IMG/VR virus record: IMGVR_UViG_3300009790_000009
Coordinates: 1 to 61,374 of that record
DNA length: 61,374 bases
Direction: 5' to 3' (one strand)
From: a virus
Taxonomy: Duplodnaviria > Caudoviricetes
In this document: positions 9,668 to 26,713 of the stretch, one piece after another
How positions within the stretch are numbered: position 1 is the first letter of the stretch
Layout: each line of letters starts with the position of its first letter
Translations under genes and position numbers: made by a program
Notes under the pieces: generated by a model
Told to the model about the DNA's origin: nothing
Databases searched by the model: none
Seen by the model: only the letters and a program-made list of their open reading frames with translations

Positions 9668-9921
9668 TGTCAGAAAGATTTCAAAAAACAAATTTGCCCG
9701 GAATGGTTAAAGACCATGCGACTGGTGCAATACTAAATACTAATAAGGATGCTTTTGTAGCATATAAATCTAGGAAGGCTAAGATCATGGAATCGAATAA
9801 TAGAATTGATTCTATAGAGATGGTAGTAGCTAACTTACAAGTTGAATTACAAAAGAGTGATGATAAAATAACAGAGATTCATTCCATGTTAAAGGCAATG
9901 GTAGGAAATAATGGCGGATAA
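9667..9921 (+). CDS. Small conserved hypothetical protein with a C-terminal coiled coil
   Basis: VKDHATGAILNTN motif followed by a heptad-like helix; translationally coupled. Confidence 0.65.
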   Translation: MSERFQKTNLPGMVKDHATGAILNTNKDAFVAYKSRKAKIMESNNRIDSIEMVVANLQVELQKSDDKITEIHSMLKAMVGNNGG

Positions 9922-12658
9922 AAAATATATATCAGCAAATATAGCGTATCAAACTGATACATTTGGTGCTTGGGTTGAAAGAACCAACCAGATGGTATTT
10001 GATATGTCTGAAAGAGTAGTTACTGCACAAGTAAACTCCATAGGTGCTGCTACAACAGGTAATGTCGTAGTAACATCTAATGTATGGAATAGTGATACTA
10101 GCGCATATGTAAATTCAACAGGTGGTGTATTTCAAGCTAATACAATAGCAGCATATGATTATTTAAGAGGTGGTAGTGTAGCCACAGAAGGTATTTTATA
10201 TATTACTTCTAATACAAATATGTCTAATGGAAGTGTTAATGTAGCATCTAACTCAACAGTCAATTCAGTAACAATTAAAGGCACATGGGCAGATATAGAA
10301 TCAACAACAGCTTATGTAAATGGTACAACATTACAAGTTAGTTCTAATGTTCATATTAATAGTACATCAACTAACACATCAATTAATTCAACATCATTAC
10401 ATGTAACTGGTACAACATTAGATATTAATTCAACAACAGTTGATATGGATGGCACCGCATTAACATATGACGGTGATAATGTTACAGTAACTGCTAATGA
10501 TATAACATTAAAATCAAATTCAACTATATCAGTTGTAGACATTAATGGAGACGGAACTTCCTCTTCAGTAACACTTGCTGGTAATTTAGTTACAGTAGAT
10601 TCAGACGAATCAAACTTTAATGCTAATGTTACATTTGGATCCAATGATAGTGATACTGTCACAGTAACATCAGTAATAGATTCAGATGTTAAACCTTCTG
10701 CTAATTCAAAAGCATTAGGTAATACAACAGCCAGATGGGATATTAGTGCAGAAGATATAGATGCATCTAATACATTAAACGTATCTGGTAATGCAACTTT
10801 CTTAAGCGATGTTCAATTAGGTAATGCTAATACTGATACAATTGATTGGCAAGCCGAAGTAGAAGGCAATATAAATCCAATATCTAATTCATATGGATTA
10901 GGTTTAAATGATGCTAGATGGGATATTAAAGGTACAGCAGGTAACTTTAGCACAGACTTATCAGTAACAAAAACAATTACAGGATCCAATACATTAACTA
11001 TAGCAGGACAAGCTAATTTAAATAGCACAGTTAATATTACAGGAGCAGCAGCTTTATCAAATACACTAGGTGTTACTGGCGCTGCTACATTAAGTAATAC
11101 ACTAGGTGTTACTGGTGCTACTACTTTATCAAATACATTAGCGGTAACAAATACAGCTACATTTAGTAATACAGGATCCTTTGCAGGATTATTATCAACT
11201 GTAGATATTAATACTACTGGATCTGTTAATGCAACAGCTGGTATGAATGTAGGTGCTAATGTTAATGTTAATACTTCACAAATTTCAATTGGTAACTCAA
11301 CACAGAATACTTATTTTAATGCAACAGGAATCGAAACAGACGGAACATTAGGTGTTAATAAGACTATTACAGGAGCCAACACTCTAGTAATATCCGGAGC
11401 TGCAACTCTTCAAAACACCTTAGCGTTAACAGGTGCTGCTACATTAAGTAATACTTTAGGCGTTACCGGTGTAACAACATTTACTGCTAATGCCGTTAGT
11501 GGTAATGTAGAAATTTCACAAGCTAAAATCACAGTAGGTAATTCAACTGTTAATGCAGTAATAGCAGATAGCGGTAATATAACAACAGATGGTGCATTAG
11601 ATGTATTAGGTGGATCTACACTTAGAGGTGGATTAACATCTGTAGCTGGTGCTACTTTACAAGCAGGAGCTGATGTCACAGGTAATGTTGATGTTAATGC
11701 TGCTGTTAATATTGGTGCTAATGTTACTTTAGGAACTGAAACACTTAAAATAGGTAACTCAACAGTCAATGCAGTTGTTGGCGCAGCTGCTGGTATTCAT
11801 ACTAAAGGTGACATTACTGGTAATGGTGCTATCACTGTTGGTGGCGCAGGTGCTATAGGAACAACTTTATCAGCTGGTAATACAGATATAACAGGTTATA
11901 TAAATGTATCATCAACATCTAATGTTGGTGGTGTTGCATGGTTTAGAAATAATATAAATCAAGCTACAGGCAAGTATGCTAATTTATCTAATGTTAAAAT
12001 AACCGGTAATGTAACAACCAATGTAATACATACAGGTACAAGAGCAAGTTTAGTTTCAAATAATATAAACTTAACAGCTTCAGCATTAACTGTAACTCCA
12101 GATGCTACATTTAACGAAGATGTTACTGTATCTGGTAACTTAACAGTTCAAGGAACAACATCATTATCATCTAGTAGTGCATTATCATTAAACGTCGCTA
12201 CAATGACTTCTTTAACAGTATCGGGTTCTGCTAACCTAGCAGGTAACGTCCATATTGGTGAAACGTATGCTGACGATGTTATTAATTTTAATGGTAAACT
12301 TAATACAAACATCATGCCACTTGCTAATGGTAAGTCACTCGGTAATACAACAAAAACATTTAACGTCTATGCTGGAACAGTCGATGCGTCTGGAGCAGTA
12401 GGTGTTGCTGGTGCACTAACAATTAACACTTCATCACAAACAGGGTCCGCAGTACATTCTGGTGACGTTAGAATAGGTAATTCAACTTCTAATACTATTA
12501 TTTCCGGCTCAGGTGGTGCAATGACGGTAGATTCTACTTTAACAGTAGATGGCTCGTCAAATGTCGTAGGAGATTTTAGTATCCATTCAGATATAAAGAA
12601 TGAATCGGGAACACCGTTCAGAGTCTTATATGCGAATGGCGACGTAGCTTGGCCATAA
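9911..12658 (+). CDS. Tail fibre-like or baseplate-attached structural protein (915 aa)
   Basis: N-terminal DTFGAWVERTN attachment-type motif, S/T/N/G-rich beta repeats and 12-aa repeats GA(A/T)xLSNTLxVT. Confidence 0.65.
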   Translation: MADKKYISANIAYQTDTFGAWVERTNQMVFDMSERVVTAQVNSIGAATTGNVVVTSNVWNSDTSAYVNSTGGVFQANTIAAYDYLRGGSVATEGILYITSNTNMSNGSVNVASNSTVNSVTIKGTWADIESTTAYVNGTTLQVSSNVHINSTSTNTSINSTSLHVTGTTLDINSTTVDMDGTALTYDGDNVTVTANDITLKSNSTISVVDINGDGTSSSVTLAGNLVTVDSDESNFNANVTFGSNDSDTVTVTSVIDSDVKPSANSKALGNTTARWDISAEDIDASNTLNVSGNATFLSDVQLGNANTDTIDWQAEVEGNINPISNSYGLGLNDARWDIKGTAGNFSTDLSVTKTITGSNTLTIAGQANLNSTVNITGAAALSNTLGVTGAATLSNTLGVTGATTLSNTLAVTNTATFSNTGSFAGLLSTVDINTTGSVNATAGMNVGANVNVNTSQISIGNSTQNTYFNATGIETDGTLGVNKTITGANTLVISGAATLQNTLALTGAATLSNTLGVTGVTTFTANAVSGNVEISQAKITVGNSTVNAVIADSGNITTDGALDVLGGSTLRGGLTSVAGATLQAGADVTGNVDVNAAVNIGANVTLGTETLKIGNSTVNAVVGAAAGIHTKGDITGNGAITVGGAGAIGTTLSAGNTDITGYINVSSTSNVGGVAWFRNNINQATGKYANLSNVKITGNVTTNVIHTGTRASLVSNNINLTASALTVTPDATFNEDVTVSGNLTVQGTTSLSSSSALSLNVATMTSLTVSGSANLAGNVHIGETYADDVINFNGKLNTNIMPLANGKSLGNTTKTFNVYAGTVDASGAVGVAGALTINTSSQTGSAVHSGDVRIGNSTSNTIISGSGGAMTVDSTLTVDGSSNVVGDFSIHSDIKNESGTPFRVLYANGDVAWP

Positions 12659-12676: not shown

Positions 12677-15148
12677 ATGTCGAATCCCCTAAAAATGATC
12701 GCACACGCCAACGGGGTATATGCGAATGGCGTTCAAGAGACTTCTTCTGCAGAATTAGACTATCTGTCTAAGCTTCTCTTAATTAAAATGGGTACCGAAT
12801 CTGGTACTGGAGATAATACTGCCGATCTTAATATTGATTCAACAGGATCCTCTGTAGGTACTTTTGTTGATGAATATGCCAATGCAGAAATACTTTCTCA
12901 TGATAGCCCAGCTATTACAAGCACGACTTATACTTTTAAACAAAATACAGCTACAGCATCTGAATCTGGTATTCATCATTTAGTCACACATGATGGTGAT
13001 AATAGTAATCCAGGAACAATTAGAATATTAACAGATGCAGAATTAAATGTAGTAATAGATTTAGCAATATCAGAAATATCAAAAGCTAATTCAACTTATG
13101 CTGCACCAGGAACATATTACGTAAGTTCTTCTTCTCCAAGTATTGGTGGTACGTGGGTAGCACAAGATACTTTCTATGATGAATTAACCAATCATGCAAA
13201 TGATGATGATGAAAAAGTTACTTATAAACTTTGGCGTAAAACATCATATGATAATTCTCCATCTACTATTCCATTATTAAAACAAATTAATGGTGCTCTT
13301 AAAGTTCAAACAGAAGATGAATTAGAAAATTTAACATCTAGATTAAGAAATAGAATTATAGGGACTAGTAAAGGAAAATATGTTTTCCAAGCCTCTGCAC
13401 CAGGAGCAGGAACATGGGTAGCTAGAGGAACAGCAACAAATAGAAAACCACAAATTAGTGGTGTTCAATATACTGGAACTTATTCAGATCAATATGCTGG
13501 CCAGTATGGTAGAGCTTTCGCTAGACAGTTTGCTCGCCAATTTACCAGACAATATTCTGCACAATATACAGTTCAGTTTTTAAGACAGTTTCAAAGAGTT
13601 TATACTGGTCAATATGAAAGACAATACTCTAGACAATTTGCTAGAGGAACAGCTGGAGCTCAGTTTGCAGCTACTCAATATGCTAGAGTTTATTCAGCGC
13701 AATATACAAGAGAAACACCAAGCACAACATATTCAGATGGTCAATATGATAGAGTAACACCAGGACCACAGTATGGAGTTCAATATACTAGAATATATTC
13801 TGCCAACTATTCAGATGGTCAGTACGATAGAGAAAGACCGGGACCACAATACGCATCACAGTTCTTAAGAGAATATGCTGGTGGCACTTATGCCGTTTCG
13901 TATGTTCGTCAAACTCCTAGTACACAATATAATGCTCAATATCAAAGAATATATTCTGTTAACTATTCAGTTGCTTATACAAGATCAAATTATACTAGAA
14001 TATATGGTGGTTACGGTTATGCAATAGGTTATGCTGTTACTTATGGAGTATTATACGCTAGAACTAGACCAGGACCTAATTATAATAGATCAACACCAGG
14101 ACCACAATATTCTGGTACATCATATCAGAGATGGTTTGCATCAGGCCCATATCCAGAAAACTATTATCTAGGACCATATTATCCGTTTGGACCTATTCCT
14201 TATGCAAGACATGCATTTACTGGTATGTTCTATAGAGGACCTGCTTATGCAAGAGCAACTTACCATGCTCCAGGTACTGGTTATACGAGTTTCCATGCTA
14301 CCCCTATAGGGGAACCTGTCATTCTAACTTTCTATAGAACGGCTGGTTTTGGTAGAGTTAGCTATTCCGGGCCTGGTTCTGGTTATGCTAATATTTTCTA
14401 TAGAGAATTTGCTGGTCCACAATATGCTCCACAGTATAGTAGAACTTATTCAGCCCAATATGGTAGAACTTATACAGCTCAATATTCAGTTTACTATACT
14501 AGAACATATTATTTTAGAAACTATTATTATAGAGCAAGACCTGGACCAAATTATGCACAAACGTATTCCAGATCATTTGCTAGAAATAATCCTGGTCCTC
14601 TATATGCTGGTACACAATATACTAGAATGGTCTATGCACTATATACTGCAACAGCATATTCAAGATATAGACCAGGTCCACAATATACAGGTCAGTTTGC
14701 TAGAGCATATGATGGTCAATATGCAAGACAATTTACTAGATCAACTCCTAGCACACAATATACAGTTCAATATGCTAGAGAATATGCTGGCCAATATGCA
14801 AGACAATTTACTAGAGTAGTTACAGCTCAGTATACTAGAATTACTCCTGGTCCACAATATAACCTTACATATGAGAGACAATATGTTGGTCAATATACAG
14901 GTTATTATGCTAGGGGTGATCAATATACTAGAGCAACTCCAGGACCTATATATGCAGGAGCACAATATACTGTGCAATATGCCAGAACTACGGGTGGCCC
15001 ACAATATGAATCGCAATATGCAGGGGCACAATATACTATACAATATACAGGACAATATGCAGGATCAAGGTTACATCAATATACCGGAGACACAGTTACA
15101 GCAACTAATGATTCCGATACAAAGACCTTGTGGTTAAGGGTAGCATAA
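12677..15148 (+). CDS. Tyr/Arg/Gln-rich repeat protein 1, putative long beta-hairpin virion fibre
   Basis: About 260-aa N-terminal domain paralogous to the next ORF (KLWRKTS, LRNRII, FQASAPG.GTW), then QY/RxY/PGP repeats around a unique centre; ends LWLRVA. Confidence 0.7.
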   Translation: MSNPLKMIAHANGVYANGVQETSSAELDYLSKLLLIKMGTESGTGDNTADLNIDSTGSSVGTFVDEYANAEILSHDSPAITSTTYTFKQNTATASESGIHHLVTHDGDNSNPGTIRILTDAELNVVIDLAISEISKANSTYAAPGTYYVSSSSPSIGGTWVAQDTFYDELTNHANDDDEKVTYKLWRKTSYDNSPSTIPLLKQINGALKVQTEDELENLTSRLRNRIIGTSKGKYVFQASAPGAGTWVARGTATNRKPQISGVQYTGTYSDQYAGQYGRAFARQFARQFTRQYSAQYTVQFLRQFQRVYTGQYERQYSRQFARGTAGAQFAATQYARVYSAQYTRETPSTTYSDGQYDRVTPGPQYGVQYTRIYSANYSDGQYDRERPGPQYASQFLREYAGGTYAVSYVRQTPSTQYNAQYQRIYSVNYSVAYTRSNYTRIYGGYGYAIGYAVTYGVLYARTRPGPNYNRSTPGPQYSGTSYQRWFASGPYPENYYLGPYYPFGPIPYARHAFTGMFYRGPAYARATYHAPGTGYTSFHATPIGEPVILTFYRTAGFGRVSYSGPGSGYANIFYREFAGPQYAPQYSRTYSAQYGRTYTAQYSVYYTRTYYFRNYYYRARPGPNYAQTYSRSFARNNPGPLYAGTQYTRMVYALYTATAYSRYRPGPQYTGQFARAYDGQYARQFTRSTPSTQYTVQYAREYAGQYARQFTRVVTAQYTRITPGPQYNLTYERQYVGQYTGYYARGDQYTRATPGPIYAGAQYTVQYARTTGGPQYESQYAGAQYTIQYTGQYAGSRLHQYTGDTVTATNDSDTKTLWLRVA

Positions 15149-15184: not shown

Positions 15185-18043
15185 GTGGCGAATCCTTTAA
15201 AAATTAATACAAGTTCAGGTCAACCAAATACCACAAACTGGTCTGGCCTAAAAACAATGTCTGCAGCAGAGATGGACTATGCTTGTTATAAAATCCTTAC
15301 AAATTTCGCTACCGAAGCTAACTCAACTACATCTTATGTTGGTGATTTAAATACAATAGGCCTTGGTACTTCAAGAGGTGCTTACACAGATCAACGTTTT
15401 CAAGATGCAGTTGGCACTCACCCCTCAGCCGCATCCACTAATACTGTAGTAACAACTTTTTATCAAAATACTGATAGTGCATCAGAAACTAGTTTGATTA
15501 GACCATTAGAATGGCAAACCGGTGGACCTAAAGAACAAACAGACACTACTTTAAATAATTCTATTATAGATAGATGTTTAACTAAAATTGCAAATACATC
15601 TTCAGCTGCAATTGGTGAATATTATATTGATTCAACTGCTCCAGCAGGTGGAACATGGACAGAAGAAAAATCATTTACTGATACCTTAACTGCATCTGAT
15701 GGTACACATGCTACTTGGAAGCTTTGGAGAAAAACTTCTGATACCGCCCCTACAACAGTAAGACCTATTAAATGGTCTAATGGTGAAGGTCAGGATGGTA
15801 TTAATGAAATGACTGATACTGAGATTAATCATCTCACAGCTAGATTAAGAAATAGAATTATAGCTACTGGTGTTGGTACTTATGCATTTCAAGCTTCAGC
15901 ACCGGGAACAGGAACATGGACTCAAGTATCTGGTAATATAACAGATAATCAAGCTTCAATTGTAGCTACACAATATTCAGGACAATATACTGGAACATTC
16001 GGTAGACAGTTTGCCAGAACTTATTCAGCTCAATACGCTAGACAATTTACTAGAATATATTCAGCACAATATGGTAGACAGTTTGCCAGAACTTATTCAG
16101 CTCAATACGCTAGACAATTTGCTAGAACTTATTCTGCAGGCTATGGTCGACAATTTGCTAGAACATATGCAGGACAGTATGCAAGACAATTTACTAGAGT
16201 ATATCTAGGTCAATATCTTAGAGCTACAGATGGTCCTCAATACACAGTTCAATATACAAGAAATACTCCTGGACCACAATATACAGTTCAATATACAAGA
16301 ATAAATCCTGGACCTAATTACACTGATGGCCAATATACTAGAGCTACGCCAGGTCCTCAATATACTTCACAGTATGATAGAGCTACACCTGGACCTAATT
16401 ACACTGATGGTCAATATGCTAGAGCTACTGGTGGACCTCAATATACAGTTCAATACGCTAGAACTTATGCAGATCAATATACTGTTCAATATGCCAGAAC
16501 TTATTCTGCACAATATTCTAGACAGTTTGGTAGAGTATATTCAGTTACTTATGCAGTTCAATATGCAAGGGTATATTCAGTTAACTATGCTGTAAACTAT
16601 ACAAGACAATTTACAAGAGTAAGACCAGGACCTAATTATGCAGTTAACTATGGTAGATCAAGACCAGGACCAGCATACGGTGTTGCATATGGTAGATCAA
16701 GACCAGGACCAGCATACGGTGTTGCATATGGTAGATCAAGACCTGGACCTAGTTATTCTGTAGGATATACTGTTAACTATGGTAGAGTCTATTACGGATC
16801 TTATACAGTAAACTATGGTAGAGTATATTATGGATCCTATACAGTAAACTATGGTAGAACTTATTCTGGATCCTATACCAGTAACTATGGTAGAGTATAT
16901 TCTGGTAACTATGCTGGACCTGCTTATCAAAGACAAACTCTACATGAATTTTTTAATCCATGGAGTTATGAACCATATTTTAGATGGATAAATGGACCAA
17001 CTTATGGTGGTGGTAACTTTGCTAGGTCTAGACCAGGACCTGCTTATGGAGTATCATATGGTAGATCTAGACCAGGACCTGCTTATGGAGTATCATATGG
17101 TAGATCTAGACCTGGACCTGCTTATGGAGTATCATACGGTAGATCAAGGCCAGGACCAGCTTATGGAGTGCAATATTCTAGAAGCTTTGGTAGAGTCTAT
17201 TATGGATCCTATACTGTAAACTATGGTAGAGTCTATTATGGACAATATACTGTAAACTATGGTAGAGTCTATTCTGGGTCTTATGCTGTTAACTATGGTA
17301 GAACTTATTCTGGTCAATATAGTGGATCGGCATATGCTGTAAACTATACTAGACAAACTGGTGGACCACAATATACAGTAAACTATACTAGAATAAATCC
17401 TGGACCACAATATACAGTAAACTATGATAGAGCTACACCTGGTCCTCAATATACTGTTCAATATACTAGAGCTACTGGTGGACCTCAATATACTGTTCAA
17501 TACGCTAGAACTTATTCTGCACAATATGCTAGGCAGTTTGGTAGAATATATTCAGCACAATATGGTCGACAATTTGCTAGAACATATGCAGGACAGTATT
17601 CAAGACAATTCGGAAGAGTTTATTCCGTTCAATATACAATACAATATACTAGAGTATACGCTGGACAATATACAATACAATATACTAGAGTATATGGTGC
17701 TCAATATGATAGAGCAAGACCTGGACCTGGTTATTCCGACGGTCAATATACCAGAGCCACACCAGGACCTCAGTATAATATAGATTATGCTAGAGCGACT
17801 CCTGGTCCTCAATATACGGGAGATCAATATGCTAGAGCTACTGGTGGACCACAATATACTTCACAGTATGATAGAGCGACTCCCGGACCTAATTATACTG
17901 ATGGCCAGTATACTAGAGCTACTGGTGGACCACAATATACAGTGAATTACACTCAACAGTTTACAGGACAATATACTGGAGATACAGTGACATCAACTCC
18001 TGCGCTTAATAGTACATTAAAACTATGGCTTAGGGTTGCATAA
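15185..18043 (+). CDS. Tyr/Arg/Gln-rich repeat protein 2, putative long beta-hairpin virion fibre (GTG start)
   Basis: Paralogue of 12677-15148 with 48 repeat units of 12-13 aa around a 31-aa unique centre; ends LWLRVA. Confidence 0.7.
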   Translation: MANPLKINTSSGQPNTTNWSGLKTMSAAEMDYACYKILTNFATEANSTTSYVGDLNTIGLGTSRGAYTDQRFQDAVGTHPSAASTNTVVTTFYQNTDSASETSLIRPLEWQTGGPKEQTDTTLNNSIIDRCLTKIANTSSAAIGEYYIDSTAPAGGTWTEEKSFTDTLTASDGTHATWKLWRKTSDTAPTTVRPIKWSNGEGQDGINEMTDTEINHLTARLRNRIIATGVGTYAFQASAPGTGTWTQVSGNITDNQASIVATQYSGQYTGTFGRQFARTYSAQYARQFTRIYSAQYGRQFARTYSAQYARQFARTYSAGYGRQFARTYAGQYARQFTRVYLGQYLRATDGPQYTVQYTRNTPGPQYTVQYTRINPGPNYTDGQYTRATPGPQYTSQYDRATPGPNYTDGQYARATGGPQYTVQYARTYADQYTVQYARTYSAQYSRQFGRVYSVTYAVQYARVYSVNYAVNYTRQFTRVRPGPNYAVNYGRSRPGPAYGVAYGRSRPGPAYGVAYGRSRPGPSYSVGYTVNYGRVYYGSYTVNYGRVYYGSYTVNYGRTYSGSYTSNYGRVYSGNYAGPAYQRQTLHEFFNPWSYEPYFRWINGPTYGGGNFARSRPGPAYGVSYGRSRPGPAYGVSYGRSRPGPAYGVSYGRSRPGPAYGVQYSRSFGRVYYGSYTVNYGRVYYGQYTVNYGRVYSGSYAVNYGRTYSGQYSGSAYAVNYTRQTGGPQYTVNYTRINPGPQYTVNYDRATPGPQYTVQYTRATGGPQYTVQYARTYSAQYARQFGRIYSAQYGRQFARTYAGQYSRQFGRVYSVQYTIQYTRVYAGQYTIQYTRVYGAQYDRARPGPGYSDGQYTRATPGPQYNIDYARATPGPQYTGDQYARATGGPQYTSQYDRATPGPNYTDGQYTRATGGPQYTVNYTQQFTGQYTGDTVTSTPALNSTLKLWLRVA
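16651..17168 (+). repeat. Coding tandem repeats: 39-nt units (GRSRPGPAYGVxY) and 36-nt units (GRVYYGSYTVNY) flanking a unique centre
   Basis: Near-identical 39-nt units occur at about 16651-16750 and 17024-17168, for example agatctagaccaggacctgcttatggagtatcatatggt. Confidence 0.9.
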
Positions 18044-18088: not shown

Positions 18089-18514
18089 ATGGCCCGATTT
18101 AAGTCTGTCTTATGGGAAGACCCCAATACAAAATTAAGAGTTAGAGCGCGAGAAATCACCGATGGTGGTAGTCGTGATGTCATTATTGACAAAAATGATA
18201 AAGAGAACTGGGATGCAGTAATTGCAGAATTTCCTTTAGAAGAAATAGATAAAGCATCTCAAGAAGATGTAGAACAACATCGTGTAAGAAAGGCAAAGCA
18301 AGAAGCTGAAGAACGCGATAGTATGGAACGAAGATTCCAAGAAGAACTATTCAACGTTAAAGTTGAAGTATTTGAAATACCTGAAATAAAAGAATGCACC
18401 GACAAATTAATGAAGAGGCGTATTAGAAAGTCTAAATCATTTGCAGAGCTATATGTTTATGCAGCTGCAATAGTAGTAGCAGACGATCTTGCGAAAGCTG
18501 ATGTTTCAGGGTGA
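18089..18514 (+). CDS. Hypothetical charged helical protein (possible fibre assembly factor)
   Basis: GGAG RBS; immediately follows the two repeat genes. Function inferred from position only. Confidence 0.55.
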   Translation: MARFKSVLWEDPNTKLRVRAREITDGGSRDVIIDKNDKENWDAVIAEFPLEEIDKASQEDVEQHRVRKAKQEAEERDSMERRFQEELFNVKVEVFEIPEIKECTDKLMKRRIRKSKSFAELYVYAAAIVVADDLAKADVSG

Positions 18515-18893
18515 TCTATTAAATGGATGGCCAGAAGATGGCGAACCAGATAAGTCTACTTTATATAAAGTAAATATAAATGATATTGGTGGCGAGTTAT
18601 TAAAAGACACTGCACAATATACATTAAAAGATAATAAGCGTCTTAATAATTTAGTTCTTAGTAGCACATTCCTTAGAGCAAACCAAAAAACAAATGGCCA
18701 TACTCATAATGGTCAAGAAGAAGTATACTTCTTTATTAAAGGTAAAGGAAAGATGACTATTGATGATATTACTTTTGAAGTTAAAGAAGGTGATGTTATA
18801 TTAATTCCAGACGGCGCTTATCATAGAGTAATTAATGATAGTCATGTAGGACTATATTTTGTATGCGTGTTTGATGGAAAAAGAAACCACTAG
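18501..18893 (+). CDS. Cupin-domain protein
   Basis: HTHNGQEEVYFFIKGKG and GDVILIPDGAYHRVIN are the two cupin motifs; ATG at 18501 preferred as start. Confidence 0.85.
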   Translation: MFQGDLLNGWPEDGEPDKSTLYKVNINDIGGELLKDTAQYTLKDNKRLNNLVLSSTFLRANQKTNGHTHNGQEEVYFFIKGKGKMTIDDITFEVKEGDVILIPDGAYHRVINDSHVGLYFVCVFDGKRNH

Positions 18894-19017
18894 TATACTA
18901 GATAAAATAGAAAAAGTCCACCCAATGAGACAAGTATTTTGGGCTTCGATAGTACAAATTTGTGTGTTGGGTTTTATGGCTTTATGTATGTTTATAATAG
19001 GAGCAACAATTGGATAA
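18874..19017 (+). CDS. Small single-TM protein (47 aa, not in the ORF track)
   Basis: Translates as MEKETTSILDKIEKVHPMRQVFWASIVQICVLGFMALCMFIIGATIG* and fills the gap between its neighbours with short overlaps. Confidence 0.55.
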   Translation: MEKETTSILDKIEKVHPMRQVFWASIVQICVLGFMALCMFIIGATIG

Positions 19018-19777
19018 AGGCTTTGTAATATGTGTAACAGTGAAACCAGTCTTTGTTACGTTAGCATTAAATTTAATCGATTCTATTGATGAGTATTATC
19101 CTGATGCCAAAATAATGGTATCAACATTACCTCAATGGGCAGATGCATTTAAAGTATATGATCAAGTAGTAGAAGTTAGAACTGATGGTCCTAACAATAT
19201 AAGAAATAAGTTGTGGGCTTTACAGCATACACCATTTGATAAAACTTGTTATCTCGATGCTGATATGGAATTTAAATCAGAAAGAGCTAGTGAAGTGTGG
19301 GATCTATTAGATGATGATCATGATGTTGCATTCACTCAAATATGTCCACCAACAGGTATGACTACTGCAATTTATGAAGAAGAAGGTCGTAAAGAAATAA
19401 GAGATAATAATGTAGAAAGGCATTTAAGAAATCATGGAGGTTTCTTTCTATGGCATAAACATAAACCAAATGCTGTAAAAGCTATGAAGCGTTGGTGGGA
19501 ACTTTGGCAAGAGATTAATGAGAATGATAAATGGTGGGATGAGCGTCCTGAATACTTTAGAGCAAATCAATCATGGGATCAATTTTCATGGTGGTGGTTA
19601 ACTCAAAAAGAGATGCCAGAATTAAAAATACAAGAAATAGAAAATGATACTGCATATCAATATCAGTGGAATATGAATCCACAAGTATTTAAATTTATAG
19701 ATAAACCTGATGATTGGGAATTAATTATAGATCATCATCCAGCACATAAGGTGAAGAATGAGAGCGTACCAATATGA
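19010..19777 (+). CDS. Glycosyltransferase, GT-A fold (GT8-like)
   Basis: Contains NKLWALQHTPFDKTCYLDAD (DxD motif), NHGGFF and WDQFS; TTG start with a GGAG RBS. Confidence 0.75.
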   Translation: MDKGFVICVTVKPVFVTLALNLIDSIDEYYPDAKIMVSTLPQWADAFKVYDQVVEVRTDGPNNIRNKLWALQHTPFDKTCYLDADMEFKSERASEVWDLLDDDHDVAFTQICPPTGMTTAIYEEEGRKEIRDNNVERHLRNHGGFFLWHKHKPNAVKAMKRWWELWQEINENDKWWDERPEYFRANQSWDQFSWWWLTQKEMPELKIQEIENDTAYQYQWNMNPQVFKFIDKPDDWELIIDHHPAHKVKNESVPI

Positions 19778-20601
19778 TAATGAGAGATATCAATATAAGA
19801 AATAAAGAATTTATTGATTTGCTGAACAAACTAGAAGTAGTAATTAAGGACTGGGTTGAAAACAGATCCGATAAAATTATGGAGTTATTCCATATACATC
19901 AAAATCAACAATGTCCTGATGCAAGAAAAAGAGATGATAAGGTCCCAATGGATCATCCAGGCGGAGCAAGTGAATTATATGCTGCGCATGATTTATATCC
20001 ACCTTGTGGCAGAGAAATGTTGGACTTGATGATAGAAAAGACTAAACAACATGGACCGCATGCTGAACTTACTAATGGGTTTCCTAGTAGAGAAAATTTA
20101 GTTGCATATAGATCAATTGAATCACAACCATGGTATGATGAGACAAAAGAACCTTTAGAGTCAGCTATCAAGGATATATCTTATAAATATTTAGGTGGAG
20201 GGTCAATGGCATTAGCTGCGTTTTATCCTCCTGGTGGATATATAGGATGGCATCATAATGGTAATGCTCCAGGTTATAATATATTATTACATTATAATTT
20301 TGGGGGCACTGGGAATTTCTATACATTTGATAATAATGAAATAATTGCTTATCCAGATAAACCTAATGAATGGGTTTGTAGAGCAGGCGACTTCGTTATA
20401 GCACATAACGATTCACGTGCAGAAGAAGTCATACAAAGAGGACACCAAGTCCAGGGCGCTGTTCCAAGGGTAGCAAAAGATGTTGAAGGAATGTCATGGC
20501 ATTCAGCTGAGAATCCGGATACATGGAGATTTACATTATCAACTGTAATTAATGATTTCGACATAAGAGAAGATTTATTAGATGAAATAGAAACCCCCTA
20601 A
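19774..20601 (+). CDS. Putative 2OG-Fe(II) oxygenase or other double-stranded beta-helix enzyme
   Basis: Contains FYPPGGYIGWHHN, a distal SWHSA and WRFTLS in the spacing of DSBH oxygenases; HxN replaces the usual HxD. Confidence 0.6.
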   Translation: MIMRDINIRNKEFIDLLNKLEVVIKDWVENRSDKIMELFHIHQNQQCPDARKRDDKVPMDHPGGASELYAAHDLYPPCGREMLDLMIEKTKQHGPHAELTNGFPSRENLVAYRSIESQPWYDETKEPLESAIKDISYKYLGGGSMALAAFYPPGGYIGWHHNGNAPGYNILLHYNFGGTGNFYTFDNNEIIAYPDKPNEWVCRAGDFVIAHNDSRAEEVIQRGHQVQGAVPRVAKDVEGMSWHSAENPDTWRFTLSTVINDFDIREDLLDEIETP

Positions 20602-25606: not shown

Positions 25607-26713
25607 ATGGCTAGACAAGCACTTATTAAACTCAGGAGGGGTACGGGCGCTCCTGCGAATAATGTGCTGGCTGAAGGCGAATTAGCAATTGATATAGCGG
25701 CAAAGAAACTATACAGTGCTAACTCAAACGGTAATGCGTTTACACTTTCGGGCGACCAGTACAATATGTCACAGTCCGGTAATGCCACACATGGTATTAT
25801 CACCCTTACTGTTGACAACACGACTCTATCAAATGATAGTGTATTAATTACTGGTGGATCAGATATTACCGTTGCTGGTAATTCTACTGTAGTAAATGTA
25901 AATTCTACATCAACACTAGATACCGTACTAGGAAGAGGAGCATCTTCTTCTAAAACTCTAGGCGTTGGAAACACAACAATAACAGGTTTTGCTAATGTTA
26001 CTTCAACATTAGAAGTAGGTAGCACATCACAATTTGATGGAGCTATCACAGTAGGTAACTCAACAGTCAATGCAGTAATTGCAGCATCTGGTAATATAGA
26101 TACAGATGGATTATTAACTGTTGGTGGCAATACCGCATTAAGTGACTCTTTAACCGTAGCAGATACTTCCACATTTAGTGGCGCAGTAACTGTAGGTAAT
26201 TCAACTGTCAATGCTGTTATAGCAACATCAGGTAATATTAATACCGATGGTACATTAACAGTAGCTGGTAATACAGCATTCAACGGCGCTAATAATGAAA
26301 TCGCCGGTCAAGTAAATATCAATGATACAACAACTTCATCTTCTGTCTCTACTGGAGCATTAGTTGTAGATGGTGGTGTTGGTATTGCAGAAAACTTATT
26401 TATTGGTGGTAACTTATCAGTTGCAGGTACAACAACAACAGTATCTTCAACAACAGTTACAATTGATGATAACTTAATTAAACTTGCTGCTAATCAAACA
26501 GCAGATGATACAGACGCAGTTGACACGGGGTTATATTCTACCTATGATGTAGGTGGAACACAAAAATATTCAGGTTTCGTTAGAGATACTTCAAATTCAA
26601 ATAAAGCATTTATATTCTTTGAAGGTATCACAAGTGAACCTGCAGGAACAGTCTCGTACACTGCATCAGACCTTGCTTACATAGAAGCTATTGTGGATGG
26701 TGGAACGTACTAA
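25607..26713 (+). CDS. Tail fibre-like protein (368 aa)
   Basis: IKLRRG...LAEGELAI N-terminus and TGALVVDGGVGIAENL motif; ends VDGGTY; AGGAG RBS. Confidence 0.7.
   Translation: MARQALIKLRRGTGAPANNVLAEGELAIDIAAKKLYSANSNGNAFTLSGDQYNMSQSGNATHGIITLTVDNTTLSNDSVLITGGSDITVAGNSTVVNVNSTSTLDTVLGRGASSSKTLGVGNTTITGFANVTSTLEVGSTSQFDGAITVGNSTVNAVIAASGNIDTDGLLTVGGNTALSDSLTVADTSTFSGAVTVGNSTVNAVIATSGNINTDGTLTVAGNTAFNGANNEIAGQVNINDTTTSSSVSTGALVVDGGVGIAENLFIGGNLSVAGTTTTVSSTTVTIDDNLIKLAANQTADDTDAVDTGLYSTYDVGGTQKYSGFVRDTSNSNKAFIFFEGITSEPAGTVSYTASDLAYIEAIVDGGTY

Follow-up and report, generated by a model that had tools for sequence, protein, structure and literature searches.

Introduction

Trimeric β fibre repeats, such as the triple β-helix, the triple β-spiral and those of T4 gp12 and gp34, are long, low in complexity and rich in β structure, and they are encoded in tail-fibre modules; their chains run parallel from base to tip, and the repeats are not known to have a mirror order. 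In T4 gp37-type tips the chain runs to a small distal head and doubles back, and outgoing and returning strands, six in the trimer, lie antiparallel in the shaft (PMC12609058, PMC9659904). Here we describe W1, a fibre-like protein of 823 residues encoded in a viral record of 61,374 bases (IMGVR_UViG_3300009790_000009; the whole record is called the window below), together with its adjacent paralogue W2. Like the trimeric β fibres, W1 is long, low in complexity, β-rich and part of a tail-fibre module; unlike them, it has repeats in mirror order. The likeness to the tip of the T4 long tail fibre protein gp37 (collar, needle and head; PDB 2XGF) and to similar tips such as those of the Bas63 fibres lies in the fold-back chain that we propose for W1 and in a variable distal part: the distal head of gp37 is its variable, receptor-contacting part, and the centre of W1 is likewise variable.

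The gp37 needle has a few tens of residues per strand. The fold-back of W1 would span everything outside the base, with arms of about 210-320 residues in W1 and W2 and of over 1000 residues in a giant relative from phage C48C1. The gp37 needle also has iron-binding HxH motifs, whereas W1 and W2 have none (10 and 4 histidines in all). W1 matched no family in Pfam or PHROG, fibre-repeat families included, and phmmer found no match to W1 or W2 among all PDB chains at E up to 1; gp37 thus has no sequence or profile similarity to W1. Finally, the W1 shaft would be built of two obligate facing unit types that covary, and nothing of the kind is reported for gp37 in the passages of PMC12609058 and PMC9659904 considered here. 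W1 would resemble the gp37 needle in topology and is not a member of its family.

An earlier note on this DNA, concerned with nucleotides 13466-15090 (W1 residues 264-805), had listed 28 repeat units of two kinds, 14 in each arm, and had claimed that every unit faces one of the other kind across the centre. From this it had drawn a long-range antiparallel pairing of the two arms.

Results

The arms of W1 are mirror complements

The W1 protein was cut at every arginine, and the units were typed as A (RxxPGPxY) or B (RxYxxxY). B heads carry an aromatic residue at +2 from the arginine; A heads have Thr-Pro-Gly-Pro there and are one residue longer. All 28 units listed before were recovered by this cutting. 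Read outward from the centre, the left-arm units start at residues 471, 462, 441, 424, 411, 398, 385, 372, 359, 345, 337, 323, 307 and 291, and the right-arm units at 589, 597, 619, 636, 650, 663, 676, 688, 701, 713, 721, 734, 752 and 770. The paired starts sum to 1060, 1059, 1060, 1060, 1061, 1061, 1061, 1060, 1060, 1058, 1058, 1057, 1059 and 1061; that is, all 14 pairs sum to 1057-1061, and in each of them an A faces a B, exactly as the earlier note had it. R485 and R576, at the edges of the centre, also sum to 1061. Cutting at every arginine yields further pieces that were absent from the earlier list (those starting at 315, 436, 576, 609, 614 and 746, plus linkers), and because the sum rule covers all 14 pairs, the pairing needs no choice of small pieces to skip.

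The linkers obey the same mirror. The two SDGQYD linkers (residues 379-384 and 353-358) are mirror-opposite the two ARQFT linkers (683-687 and 708-712), and short linkers lie opposite short linkers, both of which had been remarked before. With 206 residues in the left arm and 222 in the right, against about 309 and 317 in W2, the arms of W1 are shorter than those of its paralogue, as predicted.

The earlier note had called for a blind classification of the units. K-means clustering of 8-mers starting at arginine, taken from W2 only, gave four classes (A, B, an RQFx linker and the inner arginine of RxRPGP), and the W1 units were scored with matrices built from these W2 classes alone. The W2-trained matrices reproduced the labels of 27 of the 28 W1 units. 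The sole mismatch, RIYGG at 441, scored 1.3 as A and -5.0 as B, weak for both, yet it carries the aromatic residue at +2 that marks B; another four units (at 323, 345, 398 and 650) were correctly labelled with a negative score.

An estimate of the chance probability had also been called for. Two fixed regular expressions found 13 A-B position sums within ±2 of 1059 and no same-type pair. We then permuted either all arginine-started segments or the segments within each arm, with 20,000 shuffles for each null, and 13 A-B sums were reached in none of the shuffles under either (maxima 10 and 11). When the centre of W1 was chosen blind to unit type, 12 of 12 pairs were complementary (permutation P about 0.001). 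The statistic for parallel pairing was ordinary (8 observed, reached by 961 of 5,000 shuffles). Since the mirror score lies beyond the shuffles and the parallel score does not, the correspondence is mirror-specific. A DNA palindrome read on the other strand was considered as the source of the mirror and was ruled out by the scarcity of inverted repeats: the 5.4-kb region has many direct repeats and just three weak inverted repeats of 24-28 nucleotides. These results confirm a long-range antiparallel correspondence between the W1 arms that is far beyond chance.

The mirror extends to unit lengths

The units of W1 span 8-22 residues, and their lengths are mirrored as well. Left unit k+1 and right unit k agree closely in length (r = 0.96, with a mean difference of 0.85 residues), while shifts of -1, 0 and +2 units gave r of about 0 (r = 0.01 at the same level). 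A mirror of unit lengths shifted by one unit is expected of an antiparallel ladder and not of stacked coils matched by level. This observation bears on the alternative that each 12-13-residue unit is one coil of a thin β-solenoid and that two such solenoids lie side by side, A coils beside B coils. The tightest known β-helix coils have about 12-13 residues, like the W1 units, and the runs of four to six like units in W2 would stack well in such a structure. A thin solenoid with near-constant coils was nevertheless rejected, given the spread of unit lengths and the absence of any same-level correlation, and the simple members of the family consist of plain tetrads with no 12-13-residue period. 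We regard the paired solenoids as very unlikely.

The autocorrelation of Tyr, Phe and Trp had maxima at lags 4, 8 and 12 in all four arms of W1 and W2, so both proteins keep the aromatic residue at every fourth position that is typical of the family, with periods of 4 and 12-13. A collagen-like or polyproline repeat, which the Pro-Gly-Pro segments bring to mind, was rejected on account of these periods and because no arm has a run of three or more G-x-x triplets. In composition, the arms of W1 have a strong excess of basic residues (each arm has 23-24 Arg and only 6-9 Asp plus Glu), Tyr or Phe makes up about one residue in five, and W1 has no Cys.

The paralogue W2 and terminal anchors

We found 49 homologues of W1, and an alignment of 34 rows was used for AlphaFold2. 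The N-terminal domain is common to 347 cluster representatives at E up to 0.001, most of which align over query residues 1 to about 320. At the opposite terminus, the columns of the motif LW(L/V)(R/K)(V/I/T)A are invariant or nearly so in the 34-row alignment, and 26 distant full-length relatives as well as viral loci also have the motif; in W1 and W2 it takes the form LWLRVA at the very end of the chain.

The N-terminal domain of W2 is 42% identical to that of W1, and the repeat units of W2 stand in regular blocks. When the centre of W2 was picked blind to unit type, the register came out one unit off, with 15 complementary and 8 like pairs. Because a type-blind centre is misplaced in the periodic W2, terminal anchors were used for the later tests, and the expected mirror centre was set from two motifs outside the repeats, namely the W of GTWV and the W of LWLRVA. 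At the anchored offset W2 has 18 complementary pairs and no like pair. W2 also contains a direct repeat of 300 nucleotides at 78% identity (16622-16921 and 17030-17329), which copies an A4B4 block across the centre and yields local complementarity unaided; the aperiodic W1 is consequently the sharper test of the two, a point on which the earlier note judged correctly. As for known domains in W2, DUF2158 reached 25.2 bits against a whole-protein cut-off of 22.3 and was set aside, since the match covered only residues 725-745 in the repeats and no single stretch passed; DUF5808 stayed below the Pfam cut-off.

Complementarity and compensatory switches in homologues

In 36 proteins complementarity was maximal 6 residues below the anchor sum, with 188 complementary and 13 like pairs, compared with 45 and 24 at anchor offset 0. 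Excluding W1, W2 and the homologue P0001 left 33 homologues, for which the offset window was fixed from W1 and W2 and the offset was chosen blind to type. These gave 173 complementary mirrored pairs and 16 like ones. From homologue to homologue the order of the left arm varies (AABAABAABABB, BBABAAABB, AAABAAABB, BBBABBAAB, AABBBBBAAAB and BBBBB), and as complementarity is kept across these differing orders, it does not reflect one inherited pattern. In several homologues a left arm of B units throughout lies opposite a right arm of A units throughout, from which it follows that the order of units cannot set the register in general. The earlier proposal that the irregular order fixes a unique register is accordingly plausible for W1 and fails as a general rule.

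The 14 rungs of W1 were mapped by pairwise alignment onto 23 homologues, giving 322 comparisons, of which 197 were undefined. Both units were kept in 104, both were switched in 15, and only one was switched in 6. The double switches fell on rungs 2, 5, 7, 8, 9 and 11; in P0002, for example, rungs 5 and 7 changed from A:B to B:A. Several double switches are common to close relatives, and the independent events are fewer, at least six.

These counts speak to the possibility that nothing pairs physically and that the mirror order is a relic of duplication or the product of another constraint, such as an overall balance of unit types. The 300-nucleotide repeat of W2, locally complementary by itself, is what such an explanation would lead one to expect. 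Against it, the order in W1 is aperiodic and beyond shuffles that keep the composition of the arms, there is no DNA palindrome, lineages at 30-60% identity with different orders are still complementary at the same offset from the termini, and double switches exceed single ones (15 versus 6). We consider an origin without pairing highly improbable.

The reach of the rule is limited. A group of homologues at 32% identity has few typed units, and the generalised statement that an aromatic residue at +2 faces a non-aromatic one was rejected as a family-wide law, because the 26 distant relatives and C48C1 together gave 30 complementary and 30 like pairs (13/2 in C48C1 and 0/9 in P0110). Judged from these sequence comparisons, heterotypic pairing characterises the W1/W2 branch and C48C1 and does not extend to the whole N-domain family.

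In a scan of viral contigs, the N-terminal domain of W1 alone found no relative, and the alignment as query found 74 loci. Long paralogues in other viral contigs had complementary and like pairs in the proportions 14/0 (998 residues), 15/0 (1253 residues) and 16/4 (1480 residues). In three loci a short family gene and a long one stand in tandem (L005:950-7276, 811 and 1253 residues; L008:9001-16023, 822 and 1480 residues; L015:8995-14600, 843 and about 1000 residues; coordinates approximate), and, as in the window, these tandem genes come after a baseplate-wedge gene and the gene for a phrog_358 giant protein. A search of the ESM Atlas returned unnamed viral clusters only.

A giant relative in phage C48C1

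The sole match in the phage genome collection was CDS0201 of phage C48C1 (Kyanoviridae, complete genome OQ984149.1; L004:2012-12055), which encodes a 3347-residue 'hypothetical protein', the largest protein of that sequenced phage. The gene adjoins genes annotated as tail fibre, tail assembly chaperone and fibre assembly. The protein has the same N-domain end as W1 and terminates in LYVRVA, and its unit types differ from those of W1, being S (RxRxxxY) and F (RxFxGxY). At one centre 29 of 30 mirrored pairs are S:F, with matching irregular spacings, and the partner of the aromatic unit bears an arginine at the place of the aromatic residue. Each of the six outermost pairs gives a sum of 3587, or 5 less than the anchor sum, and further inward the sums fall stepwise (3587, 3448, 3274, 3092 and about 2973), as if several globular domains looped out of the returning arm.

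A proposed fold-back topology and the variable centre

AlphaFold2, run on W1 with the 34-row alignment, gave a predicted local distance difference test (pLDDT) score of about 90 for residues 1-265 and of 95 and 93 for 811-823, and the last 22 or so residues (802-823) were confident. DSSP assigned long strands to residues 247-269 and 798-821 of the model. Structural alignments, made after the low-confidence parts had been trimmed, span residues 47 to 823, which is compatible with one compact base. In fold searches with the full W1 model, neither BFVD nor PDB (Foldseek) gave a match at E up to 0.001, and the best hit of a wide VIA-align search of PDB had a Z of 3.8, which is not significant. Among the weak top matches in both libraries were many tail-tube and major-tail proteins (TP901-1-like, pyocin, T4, A-1(L) and NF5), all at E 0.06 or more and a match probability of up to 0.28. 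As a lead only, these matches may point to a tube-like fold with an extended hairpin for the N-terminal domain.

Full-length relatives that bear both terminal motifs range from 273 to 1628 residues. In the 273-residue relative a short simple hairpin alone stands between the two motifs, and the short members of 273-373 residues (P0089, 273; P0058, 339; P0094, 340; P0111, 366; P0077, 373) have a bare hairpin or arms of about 40 residues made of plain GxYT-like tetrads. Such simple members show tetrad repeats with an aromatic residue at every fourth position and no period of 12-13, and five of eight short members have an obvious turn motif at the midpoint predicted from the anchors. The family gives the impression of a base domain with a final β hairpin that has been lengthened to very different extents.

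Sequence identity declines from the N-terminal domain to the C-terminus, the arms and the centre, in that order (80%, 73%, 48-54% and 26% in P0002), and the centre is 19-35% identical to relatives. Even between W1 and P0001, which are 96% identical, 20 of the 33 substitutions lie in residues 454-606. The centre is thus the fastest-evolving part, as would be expected of a distal tip.

The gradation of lengths and the variable centre both bear on a second way of pairing, in which the arms would pair antiparallel between chains: two extended chains or bundles would lie head to tail, and the C-terminal strand of one would complete the N-terminal domain of the other by a domain swap. Mirror complementarity, terminal anchoring and compensatory switches are equally expected of such an arrangement, and the AlphaFold2 monomer cannot separate completion of the N-terminal domain in cis from completion in trans. 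The family grades down, however, to members of 273-373 residues in which a turn of a few residues links the two strands and only a hairpin in cis is possible; moreover, in a head-to-tail rod both ends would be taken up by attachment domains and no tip would be free, yet it is the centre that evolves fastest. Pairing between chains seems to us unlikely.

Gene neighbourhood

The features of W1 and W2 are collected in Table 1. The window has an estimated completeness of 34% and a G+C content of about 35%, and it carries the structural module of a T4-like myovirus, with genes for baseplate wedge, tail sheath, portal, major head protein, large terminase and a UvsW-like helicase. For the major head protein, the closest counterparts are those of Stenotrophomonas phage DLP6 (75%), of Melnitz, a marine phage of Methylophilales (70%), and of Synechococcus phage S-SKS1 (67%); a megablast search of 25 kb against phage records gave no match. 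The genes for W1 and W2 are flanked by baseplate or baseplate-wedge genes and tail-fibre-like genes, and the W1 family gene has the same surroundings in other loci.

Table 1. Coordinates of W1, its parts and the paralogue W2 in the window.
Feature	Position	Strand	Description
W1, whole open reading frame (ORF), fibre-like protein	12677..15148	+	open frame, 823 residues; full-length homologues at 29-96% identity
W1 N-terminal globular domain, proposed proximal base	12677..13441	+	residues 1-255; AlphaFold2 pLDDT mostly 80-95; best conserved part
W1 outgoing base strand with GTWV anchor	13415..13483	+	residues 247-269; DSSP strand in the AlphaFold2 model; blocks with pLDDT 93-94 up to residue 260
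W1 left arm	13511..14128	+	residues 279-484; 14 units, N to C B B A B A A B A B A B B A A
W1 central non-repeat region, proposed distal tip or turn	14129..14401	+	residues 485-575 (91 residues); least conserved
W1 right arm	14402..15067	+	residues 576-797; 14 units, N to C B B A A B A B A B B A B A A; mirror complement of the left arm
W1 returning C-terminal strand	15068..15145	+	residues 798-823; ends in LWLRVA; AlphaFold2 strand 798-821; motif kept across the family
W2, adjacent paralogue	15185..18043	+	952 residues; blocks B6 A6 B4 A4 B4, centre, A4 B4 A4 B6 A6

Just upstream of W1, the ORF at 9911-12658 encodes 915 residues rich in Thr, Asn, Ser and Gly with recurring TLxNTLGVTGAxTLSN motifs; it matched no Pfam or PHROG family and is probably another fibre component. 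Just after both fibre genes, a small ORF at 18489-18893 encodes a cupin domain (PF07883, E 1.7e-13), and it is followed by ORFs at 19010-19777 and 19774-20601 for which no family match was found. Farther on, the 368-residue product of the ORF at 25607-26713 had a sub-threshold match to the N-terminal domain of Mtd, the major tropism determinant (PF18454, E 0.003, 17.9 bits against a cut-off of 26.3). Frames of 84-156 residues overlap the repeats in other frames or on the opposite strand (14349-14819, 14741-15055 on the minus strand, 14871-15137, 16326-16595, 17144-17524 on the minus strand, 17424-17783, and 17600-17854 on the minus strand); they look like by-products of a repetitive, stop-poor sequence and not like genes.

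Discussion

We think it probable that W1 consists of a globular base from which a very long antiparallel hairpin extends, and that the distal tip of this hairpin is variable. W1 and W2 would then be fibre proteins of a marine myovirus of the T4 type, each with a chain that runs out and returns: the N-terminal globular domain (residues 1-255) would be completed by the last 25 or so residues of the chain, and everything between would form a single very long antiparallel hairpin of tetrads, with an aromatic residue at every fourth position. The 91-residue centre would be the distal, fast-evolving tip and is predicted to be, probably, the part that contacts the host.

The mirror correspondence suggests physical pairing of the strands, which was also the conclusion of the earlier note. 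The shuffles, the mirror specificity, the residue-level mirror, the lack of a palindrome and the compensatory switches of relatives all back a long-range antiparallel pairing, and the pairing itself is read from these patterns. The arms would be in residue register, with each B head, which brings an extra aromatic residue at +2 from its arginine, opposite an A head, which brings Pro-Gly-Pro and one residue more. At any one level of the shaft, a pair of strands would have room for a single such aromatic, packed on a partner that is small or rich in Pro; a B head opposite another B would clash with it, and an A head opposite another A would leave a space unfilled. A strict heterotypic rule fits an arrangement of this kind, and its cause may well be steric, one bulky aromatic residue per level lying against the small Pro-Gly-Pro segment of the partner. 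The aperiodic order, together with the uneven linkers, may help to set the register. By analogy with the gp37 needle of T4, three hairpins could assemble into a six-stranded shaft.

Several observations weigh against this architecture. AlphaFold2 gave the full-length W1 a pLDDT below 50 across residues 267-801, i.e. the arms, and a central piece of 303 residues modelled alone had a mean pLDDT of 31; contact between the strands at 247-269 and 798-821 is suggested by model confidence and DSSP assignment only. The homologues are related, the counts of pairs are not counts of independent events, and 197 of the 322 rung mappings are undefined. At the standard offset P0028, P0029 and P0015 fit poorly (4/2, 4/3 and 3/3 complementary and like pairs), the 26 distant full-length relatives, scored by whether an aromatic residue stands at +2 or not, gave 17 complementary and 28 like pairs, and all nine pairs of P0110 are alike. 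Finally, counts of acid-base pairs at each fixed offset in 35 proteins had no peak, which leaves the register unfixed. If arginine faces arginine, unit heads would face the tail of the neighbouring unit, and heads would meet head to head only if the arms were shifted by about 7-8 residues; the notion that both Asp of SDGQYD lie opposite two Arg with a shift of about +7 to +8 is an anecdote.

Beyond the hairpin itself, we advance with some reserve, at a little less than an even chance, the idea of a complementarity code at the protein level, in which two kinds of unit pair only with each other across an antiparallel fold-back and an aperiodic string addresses a unique partner string. Such a code would set the register for a hairpin hundreds of residues long (over a thousand in C48C1), would disfavour like-with-like mispairing between chains and would entail compensatory evolution as in RNA stems; it would amount to a new fibrous fold with a new register principle. 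Nucleic-acid hairpins are a conceptual analogue only. In both cases opposed arms follow a complementarity rule that is kept by double changes, and an aperiodic order can specify one register; in W1, unlike in nucleic acids, the 'letters' would be protein units of 8-13 residues, and the rule is relaxed in distant relatives. Within the limited coverage of our literature search, we found no description of this family or of mirror-complementary fibre repeats. A phage fibre that folds back is of a known kind, and there is a real chance that a new fibrous fold governed by a pairing code is present here.

With this architecture, an unannotated family of 347 cluster representatives, including the giant protein of C48C1, would gain a base, a fold-back shaft adjustable in proteins of 273 to 3347 residues, and a variable tip, and the tip would be the place to seek determinants of host range in abundant marine T4-like phages. 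Compensatory covariation at the level of units is a rare type of evidence for a protein, and it reveals long-range pairing where structure predictors fail. If true, a two-letter heterotypic rule of register could guide the design of β-rich fibres and negative design against aggregation.

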